A DNA stretch of 5,678 bases from a virus. The number at the start of each line of letters is the position of its first letter. Positions within the stretch are counted from its first letter, which is position 1. Under the pieces are notes generated by a model, which was not told the DNA's origin, searched no databases, and was given only the letters and a program-made list of their open reading frames with translations. The stretch lies in the IMG/VR virus record IMGVR_UViG_3300045988_006698. One strand, written 5' to 3'. Positions 2,693-5,459 of the stretch are shown piece by piece. The translations under genes and the position numbers were made by a program.

Positions 2693-3550
2693 ATGGAGAC
2701 GTTATTAAAGCTTTTGCCATCCCTCATGCAAGGGCTGGGCATGCTAACGAGCATCATAACGAGCAACAACCAAAGCAGCGCCAAGAACAGCCAAGGCTCA
2801 GGCAGCGAGACCACAACAGGCAGTGAGACCACAACAGGCAGCGTAACGGCACCACAGCAAATAGGTGCAACACAAATCAGCACGCCAACAGGTATTGCCA
2901 CATTCGGCAACCAGAGCAGCGTAAACACTGCAAACGCACTGCAAATGATGAGCGGACTGCTAAGCAACCTCGCGAATGCTGGAAGCCAAGCAAGCGCCAA
3001 GAAGTACAACAGCGCAGAGGCAGCAGCAGAACGAGCATTTCAAAAGGAAATGCGCGGAACGGCCTATCAAGATACCGTAAAGGACATGATCGCAGCGGGA
3101 ATCAATCCTATTCTGGCAGCGACCAACGGAGCAACAAGCGCACCATCGGGAGCATCTGCAAGCATTGGAAGCCAACGCTATAACCAGCAGAGCGCGCAAG
3201 CCGCAAGCGTATCCGCAATGTACGAATACGGCAACAACACGGCAGAGCTGGCGGACAAATACTTACAGCTAGCAAAACAGGCCACCAGCGCGAAACAGTT
3301 TAAGAATGCGAAAAGCTGGGAACAGGCAGCAAGCGAGCTGGCAACCTCAAGCGCAAAACAGGCACAACAGTACAGCTACGCAGCTAACAAGTTAGGTGCA
3401 GGCCTTGCGGGAGCAGGCAAAGCAGCCAAAGACGCAGTAGAAAAGGCTGGTAAAGCAGCCAAAGACGCAGTAGGAAACTTCAAAAAGTACAACCAAAGAG
3501 TGCCAATCATGCCAAACATGGACACATTCAACGCATACAGAGGAAACTAA
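2693..3550 (+). CDS. VP2: Minor capsid / DNA pilot protein VP2 (285 aa)
   Basis: It lies directly after VP1. The block AERAFQKEMRGTAYQDTVKDMIAAGINPILA matches the conserved core I recall for gokushovirus VP2. The remainder is Ala/Gln/Ser-rich low complexity with internal repeats, which is typical of pilot proteins. Confidence 0.85.
   Translation: METLLKLLPSLMQGLGMLTSIITSNNQSSAKNSQGSGSETTTGSETTTGSVTAPQQIGATQISTPTGIATFGNQSSVNTANALQMMSGLLSNLANAGSQASAKKYNSAEAAAERAFQKEMRGTAYQDTVKDMIAAGINPILAATNGATSAPSGASASIGSQRYNQQSAQAASVSAMYEYGNNTAELADKYLQLAKQATSAKQFKNAKSWEQAASELATSSAKQAQQYSYAANKLGAGLAGAGKAAKDAVEKAGKAAKDAVGNFKKYNQRVPIMPNMDTFNAYRGN
2801..2836 (+). repeat. In-frame 18-nt tandem repeat (2 copies, 17/18 identical) encoding GSETTT GSETTT
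   Basis: ggcagcgagaccacaaca (2801-2818) is followed by ggcagtgagaccacaaca (2819-2836), then ggcagc. Confidence 0.9.
3419..3473 (+). repeat. Perfect 22-nt direct repeat with 33-nt period, encoding a duplicated (A)GKAAKDAV unit near the VP2 C-terminus
   Basis: aaagcagccaaagacgcagtag occurs at 3419-3440 and again at 3452-3473. Confidence 0.9.
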
Positions 3551-3558
3551 AAAAGGAA

Positions 3559-3586
3559 GGGGGATGGCAAAACATCCCCCTTTTTT
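3559..3586 (+). terminator. Rho-independent terminator after VP2
   Basis: Stem gggggatg (3559-3566) pairs with catccccc (3573-3580) around the loop gcaaaa, followed by T6 (3581-3586). An upstream A-tract (3549-3554) is also present. Confidence 0.85.
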
Positions 3587-3612
3587 GCAACAACAATCCA
3601 AAAAATAAAGAA

Positions 3613-3793
3613 TGTGGAAAACTTGAGTTTTCAACACTTTCAACAGGTTTTCAACAACAAGTTGCACAAAGAAATTCGTCATAATGACGAACATTCAACA
3701 ATTCAACAAGTTTTCAACAAAGTTTTCAACAGGCAAAAAGACAATAAATAAACGTAGTAACGTTAAAAAAACGAGTTTTCAACACTTTCAACA
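3613..3793 (+). repeat. Iteron-like repeat array with core TTCAACA: 9 direct copies (5 as GTTTTCAACA) plus 1 inverted 9/10 copy
   Basis: GTTTTCAACA occurs at 3627, 3647, 3710, 3722 and 3775. CTTTCAACA occurs at 3637 and 3785. ATTCAACA occurs at 3693 and 3701. The inverted copy TGTGGAAAAC lies at 3613-3622. The 21-mer GAGTTTTCAACACTTTCAACA is duplicated exactly at 3625-3645 and 3773-3793. Confidence 0.9.
3675..3691. repeat. Perfect 17-nt palindrome TTCGTCAT-A-ATGACGAA inside the iteron region
   Basis: ttcgtcat (3675-3682) is the reverse complement of atgacgaa (3684-3691). This suggests a dimeric protein site or a small cruciform. Confidence 0.8.
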
Positions 3794-3812
3794 CTACTAC
3801 TACTACTACTAC
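3793..3812. repeat. Trinucleotide microsatellite (ACT/TAC) x6
   Basis: actactactactactactac begins immediately after the last iteron copy. Confidence 0.9.
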
Positions 3813-3845
3813 AACAAGTTAATATAAAAAGAAAGCGAGGTGTCA

Positions 3846-3880
3846 ACCGGCACAAGATAGACAAGGAAGCTTGTGCCGGT
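3846..3880 (+). promoter_or_regulatory. Perfect 11-bp stem-loop directly upstream of the rep (VP4) start; candidate origin hairpin or translational control element
   Basis: accggcacaag (3846-3856) pairs with cttgtgccggt (3870-3880). The 13-nt loop atagacaaggaag contains the SD-like AAGGAAG. The stem ends 7 nt before the ATG at 3888. Confidence 0.7.
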
Positions 3881-3887
3881 AACAAAA

Positions 3888-4877
3888 ATGCCATGTACAA
3901 AACCATTAGTATTTCAGATGGACACGAAAAAACCAAAACTGTGGGGAAGTCTGGAAAACCTATCAAAGCAAGGACTGCAAACGGACATCATGGACGGAAT
4001 CAAAAAAGGAAAATTCGCACTATTACCTTGTGGTAAGTGCGAGTATTGCCGCAAACAGATGGCAGACCAATGGGCAACAAGAATAGAGCTAGAAGCCAAA
4101 GAATGGGACGATGTGATTTTTCTAACACTAACGTACGATGATGACCATATTCCATACGGCGAGATAATCAAAGGCTACAGAAGCATTCAAAGCCAGACAG
4201 TGAGTAAGCGAGACGTACAGCTGTTTTTAAAACGGCTACGGAAAGCATACAAGAAGCCGATAAAATATTTCCTAGCAGCCGAATACGGCGACAGAACAAA
4301 AAGACCGCACTATCATGCAATAGTATTCGGACTAAAGCCACCGGATGCACAATGGTATAAGAACCAAAAAGGAAATAGCTATTTTAAAAGCGAATGGTTG
4401 CAAAAAATCTGGGGCAAAGGCATGATAGACTTTTCGCCAGCACAACCGGGAAGTTTTGCATACGTGGCGCAATACGTCAACAAGAAAGCCATAGGTGCAG
4501 AACAAGCGGCAAAATACTGGATGGAAGGTAGAGAACCTGAGTTTAGAATCATGTCGAAAGGCATCGGCGAAAAGTATCTAAAAGAACACAAAGATGAAAT
4601 CTTGAAAACGGATAGCATCATATGCGCGGGAGGACGCGAGAAAAGGCCTCCACGCTATTTTGATAAGATTCTAGATAAGGATACCAGCCAAGACACGGAA
4701 AGCTATTTTAGGGCACATTCTGACGAGCTGAGAGAGGTTAGGGCCAGACGCAGACGCAGCGCAATACAAAGTTTAGTCAATCTCGAACAGAACACAAGCG
4801 TAGATTACAAAACCTATCTAAACATTCAGAAAGAAAAAGACAAGCTAAAGCAAAAATGGCGTGAACCAAAAGCATGA
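3888..4877 (+). CDS. VP4: Replication initiation protein VP4 (HUH rolling-circle endonuclease, phiX174 gpA superfamily)
   Basis: Motif 1 is FLTLTY (4119-4136). The HUH motif is RPHYHAIVF (HYH at 4308-4316). The di-tyrosine motif 3 is YVAQYVNKK (4461-4487). An N-terminal CGKCEYC cysteine cluster lies at 4029-4049. I prefer ATG at 3888 over the track's GTG at 3873, which lies inside the stem. Confidence 0.9.
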   Translation: MPCTKPLVFQMDTKKPKLWGSLENLSKQGLQTDIMDGIKKGKFALLPCGKCEYCRKQMADQWATRIELEAKEWDDVIFLTLTYDDDHIPYGEIIKGYRSIQSQTVSKRDVQLFLKRLRKAYKKPIKYFLAAEYGDRTKRPHYHAIVFGLKPPDAQWYKNQKGNSYFKSEWLQKIWGKGMIDFSPAQPGSFAYVAQYVNKKAIGAEQAAKYWMEGREPEFRIMSKGIGEKYLKEHKDEILKTDSIICAGGREKRPPRYFDKILDKDTSQDTESYFRAHSDELREVRARRRRSAIQSLVNLEQNTSVDYKTYLNIQKEKDKLKQKWREPKA

Positions 4878-5038: not shown

Positions 5039-5066
5039 ATAATTACAGAAAAGGAGCTTGATAAAA

Positions 5067-5459
5067 ATGCTTAAAAGCTATATCATGAACACAGATGGAA
5101 ACGTACAACTTGCAAGACACTTTAAGGTAAGGGAATTTGCCTGTAAAGACGGCAGTCCAGTAGTATTCATAGACGACTACCTATACAACGTTCTGGATAT
5201 CTTACGACATAAGCTAGGAAAGCCGGTAATCATCACCAGCGGATACAGAACACCAGAATGGAATAAAAAATGCAACGGAGCAAAATACAGCTACCACATG
5301 CGCGGTATGGCAGCAGATATCCGAGTCGATGGCATGAGCGCAAAAGAACTTGCCAAAAAACTGGATGAAATCGTCCCGGATGGATGCGGCATTATCGTAT
5401 ACAACACTTGGGTGCACTTTGATGTACGAAGTGGGAAAAAATACAGAAAGGGGATGTAA
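5067..5459 (+). CDS. Zinc D,D- or L,D-peptidase of the M15 family (Peptidase_M15_3/M15A-like, VanY/endolysin fold); putative peptidoglycan hydrolase
   Basis: The pattern FKVREFACKDG...LR..LGKPVIITSGYRTPEWNKK..GAKYSYHMRGMAADI...GCGIIVY..WVHFDVR matches the family layout. Putative Zn ligands are His (5295-5297), Asp (5316-5318) and His (5415-5417). ATG at 5067 lies 10 nt after the SD. The track's TTG at 5058 is only 1 nt from the SD and is unlikely. Confidence 0.85.
   Translation: MLKSYIMNTDGNVQLARHFKVREFACKDGSPVVFIDDYLYNVLDILRHKLGKPVIITSGYRTPEWNKKCNGAKYSYHMRGMAADIRVDGMSAKELAKKLDEIVPDGCGIIVYNTWVHFDVRSGKKYRKGM

Follow-up and report, generated by a model that had tools for sequence, protein, structure and literature searches.

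The single-strand DnaA-binding element of the basal unwinding system (BUS) of bacterial origins is the DnaA-trio, whose consensus is 3'-GAT-5' (PMC8287927, PMC6669920). Under the published rules, a BUS contains a DnaA box that departs at no more than two positions from TTATCCACA or from the box of the species itself, a second box that is optional, then 0-16 bp of spacer and a run of three or more NAN trios on the opposite strand (Pelliciari 2021, PMC8287927). The optional box stands in tandem between the first box and the trios and tolerates up to four mismatches, and the modal spacer length is 12-13; the sequences in Table S2 of the same study are written 3'->5', so the polarity is 5'-box-box-gap-(CTA)n (PMC8287927). 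In this notation, the BUS of B. subtilis reads 5'-TTATCCACA AATCCACA GGCC CTACTATTACTTCTACTA and that of C. botulinum 5'-TTATTAACA TATCAACA AGCC (CTA)6 (PMC8287927). Here we describe an element that appears to share this architecture in a virus, IMG/VR record IMGVR_UViG_3300045988_006698. The element lies in the gap between the VP2 gene and the gene for the replication protein Rep (VP4); the whole stretch of 5,678 nucleotides that was analyzed is referred to as the window. It represents a complete-looking microvirus of the gokushovirus type, a 5.7-kb single-stranded DNA (ssDNA) phage, and its closest GenBank relatives are human-gut gokushoviruses (~89% identity).

The part of the element nearest rep reads 5'-TTTTCAACA CTTTCAACA (CTA)6 CAACAAGT TAATATAAAAAGAAAG, and its order, its polarity and its 9-nt box-to-box step all equal those of the B. 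subtilis and C. botulinum BUS. The first box, TTTTCAACA (3776-3784), has two mismatches to the canonical TTATCCACA and none to the host word introduced below; the second, CTTTCAACA (3785-3793), abuts it, as in the Firmicute examples, and the tandem pair thus spans 3776-3793 on the + strand with starts 9 nt apart. Directly beyond, (CTA)6 on the box strand (3794-3811) amounts to six 3'-GAT-5' trios on the - strand. The first box is separated from the trios by 9 bp, or by 12 bp if the first CTA, which occupies the position of a 3-4-nt gap in hosts and relatives, is read as the gap. A conserved CAACAAGT tail and then an AT-rich patch, TAATATAAAAAGAAAG, follow as the candidate unwinding region (3812-3835). 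The composite box-box-trio pattern occurs once in the window and in none of 200 shuffled sequences. Judged by its letters, the element conforms to the BUS rules in every respect except the length of its AT-rich region.

The likeness to chromosomal systems such as the B. subtilis incC region (DnaA-box#6/#7 and adjoining trios; Richardson 2016/2019, Pelliciari 2021) covers the tandem boxes with starts 9 nt apart, a gap of 0-4 nt, the five to six 3'-GAT-5' trios opposite TTATCCACA-type boxes and the co-oriented box clusters upstream, with a candidate AT-rich region beyond the trios; the viral box word is identical to that of Oscillospirales origins. The viral element differs in that it is carried by a phage with its own rolling-circle initiator instead of lying between dnaA and dnaN, in its small size (~225 nt), short AT patch and virus-specific CAACAAGT tail, and in its organization as a mobile, invertible cassette. 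Chromosomal origins of this kind are found in the dnaA-dnaN spacer or in the intergenic region upstream of dnaA, and a Pfam search of the viral genome detected neither gene. By design the element would be expected to work like a BUS; the absence of both genes sets it apart from a chromosomal oriC.

A sequence-only reading of this DNA had already drawn attention to the gap between the VP2 terminator and the rep start codon (ATG at 3888), proposing an iteron-like array that could be an origin or a Rep operator. Its description of the repeats was accurate. TTCAACA occurs nine times, always on the + strand (starts at 3630, 3639, 3650, 3694, 3702, 3713, 3725, 3778 and 3787), and a genome-wide count found it nowhere else on either strand; shuffled genomes held 1.04 copies on average and five at most, and none of 200 reached nine. 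The full decamer GTTTTCAACA is present in exactly five copies (3627, 3647, 3710, 3722 and 3775). An inverted copy matching at 9 of 10 positions, TGTGGAAAAC (3613-3622), stands 4 nt ahead of the first direct one, and a 21-mer, GAGTTTTCAACACTTTCAACA, occurs twice (3625-3645 and 3773-3793) at an offset of 148 nt. One additional decamer match with a single mismatch, at 4600-4609 (- strand) within the VP4 gene, is taken as chance. The (ACT)6.7 run directly after the last repeat (3793-3812), on which that reading did not comment, is an integral part of the element.

The functional proposal fared less uniformly: an origin-like array of protein-binding repeats stood up to analysis, but Rep (VP4) as the binding protein and the analogy to iterons did not. 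Resolved into 9-mers, the repeats comprise five copies of TTTTCAACA plus the variants CTTTCAACA, CATTCAACA and AATTCAACA, and the inverted copy is TTTTCCACA. A relaxed DnaA-box pattern, TTWTNMACA, has six matches in the whole genome, all of them in the module, compared to 0.77 expected. We consider it very probable, on this and the comparative evidence that follows, that the repeats and the adjoining run are host-type DnaA boxes and trios.

The whole origin-like cassette measures ~225 nt (3607-3830, + strand), and it is this unit that is deleted, moved and inverted among relatives, which fall into two clades; in an alignment of 61 modules, similarity drops abruptly at both of its edges. The inverted box TTTTCCACA (3613-3621, - strand), a perfect match to the relaxed consensus TTWTNCACA, is found in the window's clade only. 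It is followed by nine co-oriented boxes in three phased clusters. Cluster 1 (3628-3656, + strand) consists of TTTTCAACA (3628-3636), CTTTCAACA (3637-3645) and a second TTTTCAACA (3648-3656). Cluster 2 (3692-3731, + strand) consists of CATTCAACA (3692-3700), AATTCAACA (3700-3708) and two copies of TTTTCAACA (3711-3719 and 3723-3731), and the BUS-proximal pair makes up the third cluster. The spacer between clusters 1 and 2 contains a palindrome, ATTCGTCATAATGACGAAC (3674-3692), that as ssDNA would fold at -6.7 kcal/mol (z = -4.05). Its CGTCA-N3-TGACG arms are conserved in both clades although the surrounding spacer drifts, and a second factor, one that is dimeric, may bind there. The spacer after cluster 2 holds a smaller palindrome, AACGTAGTAACGTT, and then an A-run (3751-3764; weak hairpin, z = -1.5). 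On its left the cassette is neighbored by the VP2 terminator, a hairpin at 3557-3582 that the sequence-only reading had placed correctly and that together with its T-run extends over 3557-3588 (+ strand). The terminator lies outside the module, and similarity to the other clade ends there (left-flank between-clade identity 0.18).

To compare the element with bacterial origins, we scanned 185,579 species genomes with the pattern TTCAAC-N1-3-TTTMMAC-N0-6-CTACTACTA. At least 120 loci matched, against approximately six expected by our own rough estimate, and the taxonomic picture is accordingly that of a sample. The matches listed came mainly from Oscillospiraceae, Ruminococcus, Acutalibacteraceae, Ruthenibacterium and other metagenome-assembled genomes (MAGs) of Clostridia, plus Selenomonas and a few lactobacilli; a single microvirus (L212) was among the 120. 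In 86 of these 120, dnaA lay directly upstream and dnaN directly downstream, both reading in the box-to-trio direction, and 25 more had one of the two genes, the other side being mostly lost at the end of the contig or locus. The pattern therefore marked a dnaA-dnaN origin in 111 of the 120 matches listed, with DnaA and DnaN confirmed by Pfam, and the host matches are the classical Firmicute origin-unwinding site. A typical host site reads GTTTTCAACA(N)TTTCAACA GCCC CTACTACTACTACTA and is followed by 25-35 nt of AT-rich DNA.

The most frequent 9-mer in the 86 dnaA-dnaN spacers was TTTTCAACA, with 245 forward and 65 reverse copies (a count inflated by the search pattern, by at most one or two per locus); the canonical TTATCCACA occurred 6 and 9 times, respectively. 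TTTTCAACA is the DnaA-box word of gut Oscillospirales origins. The origin of Ruminococcus albus 7 contains TTTTCAACA-GGT-TTTTCAACA, with TTTTCAACA-GG-TTTTCAACA as the word to set beside viral cluster 1, and DoriC uses TTTTCAACA as the species-specific DnaA-box standard for some taxa (both in Pelliciari Table S1, PMC8287927). The grammar of the host origins also resembles that of the virus: tandem boxes are 0-3 nt apart (gagTTTTCAACActttcaacaggTTTTCAACA; aagTTTTCAACAaagTTTTCAACA), inverted boxes occasionally stand beside direct ones, and a similar palindrome with an A-run stands just ahead of the BUS, in the same order. Exact TTTTCAACACTTTCAACA BUS boxes were present in origins of Ruminococcus, Acutalibacteraceae and Clostridia MAGs (e.g. 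L181, L202 and L168). Recent wholesale capture of a host origin was considered and rejected: blastn against the 120 host loci produced only short matches of 31-54 nt, confined to the box clusters and the BUS, and for this reason the element is not a recent wholesale copy. It instead appears to be a compact origin of the same design, sharing with the hosts a grammar but no long homology.

The box flavor and BUS grammar probably point to Oscillospirales hosts (Ruminococcaceae, Oscillospiraceae and Acutalibacteraceae). Two observations agree with this prediction. The M15 peptidases of human-gut gokushoviruses are closest to those of Faecalibacterium (Roux et al. 2012, PMC3394797), and in the relatives examined here the M15 gene is preceded by promoters and ribosome-binding sites of Firmicute style. 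Exact-protein look-ups of VP4 and VP2 in public assemblies, made for host context, returned no records. The host scan also yielded two side observations: several host origins carry GCGCGCGC just past the AT-rich region (L136, L193 and L207), and a contig of a Mesoaciditoga MAG (L125, 2400-2800) combines a BUS with nine densely packed forward TTTTCAACA boxes in an 8-kb locus where neither dnaA nor dnaN was detected. The latter array may be an origin away from dnaA, or a mobile element.

Among viruses, the module is widespread. In a megablast comparison to GenBank phages, otherwise unalignable microviruses matched the window only across 3629-3832. Pattern scans of IMG/VR (at least 120 matches each) and protein-selected samples together contained at least 149 distinct microvirus contigs with the module, in two clades, and a further capsid-selected sample of the distant clade confirmed its presence there. 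In the clade of the window, where VP4 is 80-98% identical, 54 relatives were selected by VP4, and all the complete genomes among them have it. In the distant clade (VP4 33-40% and VP1 ~40-47% identical), the full module is present in ~67 of 78 capsid-selected genomes. The unwinding elements are present in ~95% of complete genomes. Distant-clade genomes that seemed to lack the trios or the array proved to be mostly artefacts of the regular expressions, with variant fourth triplets or degenerate boxes (e.g. L465); one 7.2-kb contig (L451) had no array and no VP4 match. Larger contigs that matched a 16-mer scan of IMG/VR were all without boxes and were dismissed as chance, and a locus with four TTCAACA copies (L030) turned out to be a coding Ser/Thr-rich repeat.

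The 61 aligned modules revealed sharply graded conservation. Between-clade identity was 0.83 for the boxes, 0.83 for the trios and 0.81 for the CAACAAGTTAATAT tail, compared to 0.53 for the spacers and ~0.2 for the flanks. The box consensus is nTTTC[A/C]ACA: position 1 is free, positions 2-5 and 7-9 are fixed, and position 6 is only A or C (canonical base). Spacing is held within ~1 nt: cluster 2 follows cluster 1 at a distance of 55 nt, the tail follows cluster 2 at 118-119 nt, and among relatives the gap and the trios together always measure 18-19 nt. These patterns indicate purifying selection on the boxes, the terminal pair, the trios and the AT-rich patch. They also bear on a check suggested by the sequence-only reading, whether repeat number and core co-vary with VP4. 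The repeats do not: the same core, spacing and order are kept where VP4 is only 33-40% identical to that of the window.

The module is independent of VP4 in position and strand as well. In the window's clade it is located between VP2 and VP4, and every copy found in that clade shares the strand of the genes. Distant-clade genomes carry it downstream of VP4, in front of the M15 gene, and mostly on the other strand: opposite and same orientation were counted 45 and 2 times in a first scan and 51 and 2 times among the loci new to a second scan, and three genomes of the capsid-selected sample were same-strand. Two loci, L001 and L002, have opposite module orientations between the same flanks. There is one copy per genome, with a single match in nearly every locus. 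The most telling genome is L254, whose VP4 is 97% identical to that of the window. Its VP2-VP4 gap has cleanly lost the module and nothing more (...caatcaaaaaaaa joined directly to gaaagcgaggtg). Immediately behind VP4 the genome has gained the distant-clade module in inverted orientation, along with the flanks, promoter and M15 gene of that clade.

If a module can be used whichever way it faces with respect to the packaged strand, it has to work on double-stranded DNA (dsDNA). Action on dsDNA would exclude a VP4 nick origin and VP4-specific iterons, and it argues against a strand-specific origin for the complementary strand. Moreover, the nick origin of a rolling-circle Rep must sit on the packaged strand, and free inversion likewise argues against a VP4 nick site or iterons. 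Several further observations concern recombination. The M15 gene (5058-5459 in the window) has been exchanged between clades, with up to 91% amino acid identity where VP4 is only 37% identical, and in L254 it moved together with the origin module; this joint transfer implies that the module and the lysis gene form a recombining block. Two close-clade genomes (L099 and L276) have a duplicated terminal BUS unit (boxes plus trios). A 10.7-kb contig (L273) contains genome segments of both the close-clade and the distant-clade type, with modules in opposite orientation, and may be a concatemer, a chimera or a co-assembly.

Our preferred explanation, which we hold to be probable, is that the array is a compact, DnaA-dependent origin module of host type that mimics the unwinding core (BUS) of oriC and travels as a movable cassette. 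Its carriers are probably gut microviruses infecting Oscillospirales (Ruminococcaceae/Oscillospiraceae-like Clostridia). This explanation builds on the identity, order, polarity and spacing of the parts, which are equivalent to those of host origins, are selectively conserved and do not depend on VP4, position or strand; how the parts would act is reasoned by analogy to what is established for the BUS. Host DnaA-ATP would bind the nine co-oriented boxes, in their three phased clusters, on the replicative form, which is double-stranded and supercoiled, and the two boxes beside (CTA)6 would nucleate a DnaA filament onto the strand that carries the 3'-GAT-5' trios. The filament would melt the adjacent AT-rich patch, where the host helicase (with its loader) and primase or primosome would then load. 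The virus would gain initiation or priming that does not require VP4, for amplification of the replicative form or for episomal maintenance, and DnaA would unavoidably be drawn away from the host origin as a side effect. To the proposition that unwinding or initiation really takes place at the module we give slightly better than even credence.

Several observations weigh against this explanation. The AT-rich patch proper (3820-3835) has only 16 nt, 14 of them A/T, after the 8-nt CAACAAGT, compared to 25-35 nt in hosts, and the window has no gap between the second box and the trios, unless its first CTA is counted as one. Microviruses already possess a complete rolling-circle system (VP4), which leaves a second origin of host type without an explanation. 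An intermediate clade (VP1 50-55% identical; L303-L334) has no box cluster or trio run; the distribution is thus patchy, and we rejected the idea that the module is a universal gokushovirus feature. Two apparently complete distant-clade genomes (L410 and L422) keep the eight boxes of clusters 1 and 2 and have lost the palindrome, the BUS boxes, the trios and the tail, so the unwinding core is not strictly indispensable, unless these genomes are defective. Finally, most viral contigs come from one large dataset (3300045988) and are not fully independent, and part of the distant-clade sample was picked with trio-containing patterns, a bias mitigated by the protein-selected samples.

A more far-reaching version of the origin reading is that these microviruses, abundant in human and animal guts, can replicate in Oscillospirales as DnaA-driven minichromosomes of the oriC type, by theta replication in step with the cell cycle of the host, in a plasmid-like, non-integrative carrier state that exists beside virion production by VP4 rolling-circle replication. 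We put this forward tentatively, as a doubtful but specific possibility. Minichromosomes based on oriC are laboratory constructs that replicate on host DnaA alone; the viral element, by comparison, is natural, viral and widespread.

The main rival is that the array titrates or senses DnaA without any initiation on viral DNA, either shutting down initiation on the host chromosome or tying viral gene expression to DnaA-ATP status. Nine boxes multiplied by many copies of the replicative form would sequester DnaA, and in the clade of the window the array stands just ahead of VP4. The eight boxes without a BUS in L410 and L422 would also suit such a role, and plasmid-borne box regions of the B. subtilis origin are incompatible with the chromosome. 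The array resembles known titrating loci (E. coli datA and the DnaA-box clusters of B. subtilis) in that clusters of boxes outside an origin bind DnaA; those loci lack an adjacent trio run and unwinding element. In the virus, however, the parts that only unwinding would need (the tandem proximal boxes, the gap plus trios of 18-19 nt and the AT-rich patch) are as conserved as the boxes, and the inter-cluster spacing is fixed within 1 nt, which is not required of a sponge. We regard titration or sensing alone as unlikely.

Considerably less likely is an origin for the complementary strand, at which a DnaA-box hairpin on the incoming strand would recruit DnaA and a primosome for the conversion of ssDNA to dsDNA. 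The model for this arrangement is the 'ABC primosome' assembled at the R6K A-site. In the window's clade, the inverted box (3613-3621) can indeed pair with the first direct box across 4 nt, but the resulting hairpin is weak (-5.4 kcal/mol, z = -1.7) and the inverted box is absent from the distant clade. The packaged strand therefore has no stable, conserved hairpin of the R6K A-site type, and the module occurs on either strand relative to it, with no strand-specific ssDNA signal conserved. The known microvirus signals are of another kind: the phiX174 origin is a 30-bp gpA recognition and nick site inside gene A, complementary-strand origins are also known for phiX174 and G4, and all of these are strand-specific and read by the viral Rep, PriA or primase. 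They too are replication signals of Microviridae, but have no DnaA boxes, trios or repeat array.

We give little credit to the view that the repeats are promoter or activator sites for rep, an alternative raised by the sequence-only reading, or that they are neutral, host-derived passenger DNA. The gap must hold some signal for VP4 expression, and its AT-rich patch contains TATAAA-like words. A simple sigma-70 scan nevertheless found no promoter-like site in the gap, in line with the earlier failure to see a convincing sigma70 promoter for rep, and the distant-clade element points toward the 3' end and terminator of VP4, being upstream of no gene in that direction. The differential conservation of boxes and trios relative to spacers excludes neutrality, and L254 regained a copy after losing its own.

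Least credible of all are iterons, an operator or a nick origin for VP4, which the same-orientation repeats directly upstream of rep in the window had suggested: genomes whose VP4 proteins share only 33-40% identity have the same core, its place and strand with respect to VP4 are variable, L254 swaps modules while its VP4 is 97% identical, and the same words make up the chromosomal origins of bacteria that have no VP4. Origins of CRESS-DNA viruses and rolling-circle plasmids also have short, same-orientation repeats beside rep, but their iterons co-vary with Rep and have a fixed polarity on the nicked strand; here, repeats and Rep do not co-vary, and neither polarity nor position is fixed. Iteron origins of plasmids and phage-plasmids (pSC101, P1 oriR, F, RK2 oriV and R6K; reviewed in PMC4980987) are alike in that a mobile replicon borrows host DnaA. 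In those origins it is a Rep encoded by the element itself that occupies the iterons and brings about opening, and a small number of DnaA boxes have an accessory role. In the viral element, by contrast, the repeats themselves appear to be the DnaA boxes, trios are present, and no element-encoded iteron binder is implicated.

A better candidate than the array for a VP4-related signal is a perfect 11-bp hairpin with loop GATAGACAAG at 3846-3880 (+ strand), just before the VP4 start and outside the cassette. As ssDNA it would fold at -14 kcal/mol (z = -5.7). The loop is unchanged in 27 of 28 distinct variants, the remaining one having GTTAGACAAG, and the stem shows full compensatory changes (A-T/G-C/C-G at one pair and C-G/T-A at another). 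The upstream GAGGTGTCAA (3833-3845) is nearly invariant, and L254, which lost its own module from the gap, has kept the hairpin in place. One possible role is that of a nick site for VP4, since the loop (...AAG/ATAG...) is reminiscent of phiX174 (...TTG/ATAT...); alternatively, the hairpin may act in translation by bridging the distance from the SD-like GAGGTG to the ATG.

The remainder of the genome has the expected genes: ORF5/VP5 (259-513), the scaffold VP3 (500-946), the capsid protein VP1 (963-2654; PF02305), VP2 (2693-3550), then the gap, Rep VP4 (3888-4877; PF23343) and, after it, the M15 peptidase (5058-5459). Two small open reading frames in the gap (3614-3751 and 3684-3827) were rejected as genes; they have no Pfam match, and the spacers that they span differ among relatives. 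In an Rfam scan of 3500-3950, no family came near its threshold (best score 25.6 bits, against a gathering score of 58.7).

Elements of the same flavor were also observed in larger phage contigs. A compact box array plus BUS is present on the - strand at ~1750-2000 of L357 (from the 39-kb IMGVR_UViG_3300045988_134603), whose neighbors (tape-measure protein, Dit and minor tail protein) identify a tailed phage, and another at 1-300, reverse-complemented, of L366 (from the 23.6-kb IMGVR_UViG_3300013947_000130). No dnaA or dnaN was present in either stretch examined. Mimicry of host origins may thus be a wider habit of the phages of these Clostridia. Among the microviruses, alternating purine-pyrimidine GC/CA repeats (cgcgcgtgcgcgcgtgcgcgc), often in inverted copies and with the potential to form Z-DNA or cruciforms, border the module on its AT-rich side in the distant clade and in some close relatives (L001 1120-1170, L002 2290-2335, L003 2980-3012 and L465 1218-1260); the window has none. 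Many genomes of the intermediate clade have long T-runs (TTTTTTTT, up to 16 per genome).

Our literature search turned up no earlier description of DnaA boxes, trios or elements resembling oriC for Microviridae, and nothing relevant on the DnaA-trio in connection with bacteriophage; its coverage was incomplete, and the result is not proof of absence. What is new is a known origin core in an unprecedented carrier, organized as a mobile cassette.

The finding would imply a second step or lifestyle, dependent on the host initiator, for Microviridae, the textbook example of Rep-driven rolling-circle replicators. It offers practical consequences too. Box flavor could serve as a sequence-only host prediction for uncultured gut gokushoviruses, and a naturally minimized origin of ~225 nt could benefit BUS studies and vector building in genetically difficult bacteria. 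Repeats beside rep in ssDNA viruses, moreover, should not be labeled Rep iterons without a co-variation test. For the biology of the family, hijacking of DnaA or episomal maintenance provides a testable mechanism by which nominally lytic microviruses might stay for years in individual guts. If the minichromosome reading is true, it would represent a new route to persistence for phages without an integrase, and a natural capture of the core of the host's chromosomal origin, a device that at least one tailed phage of the same hosts would share.

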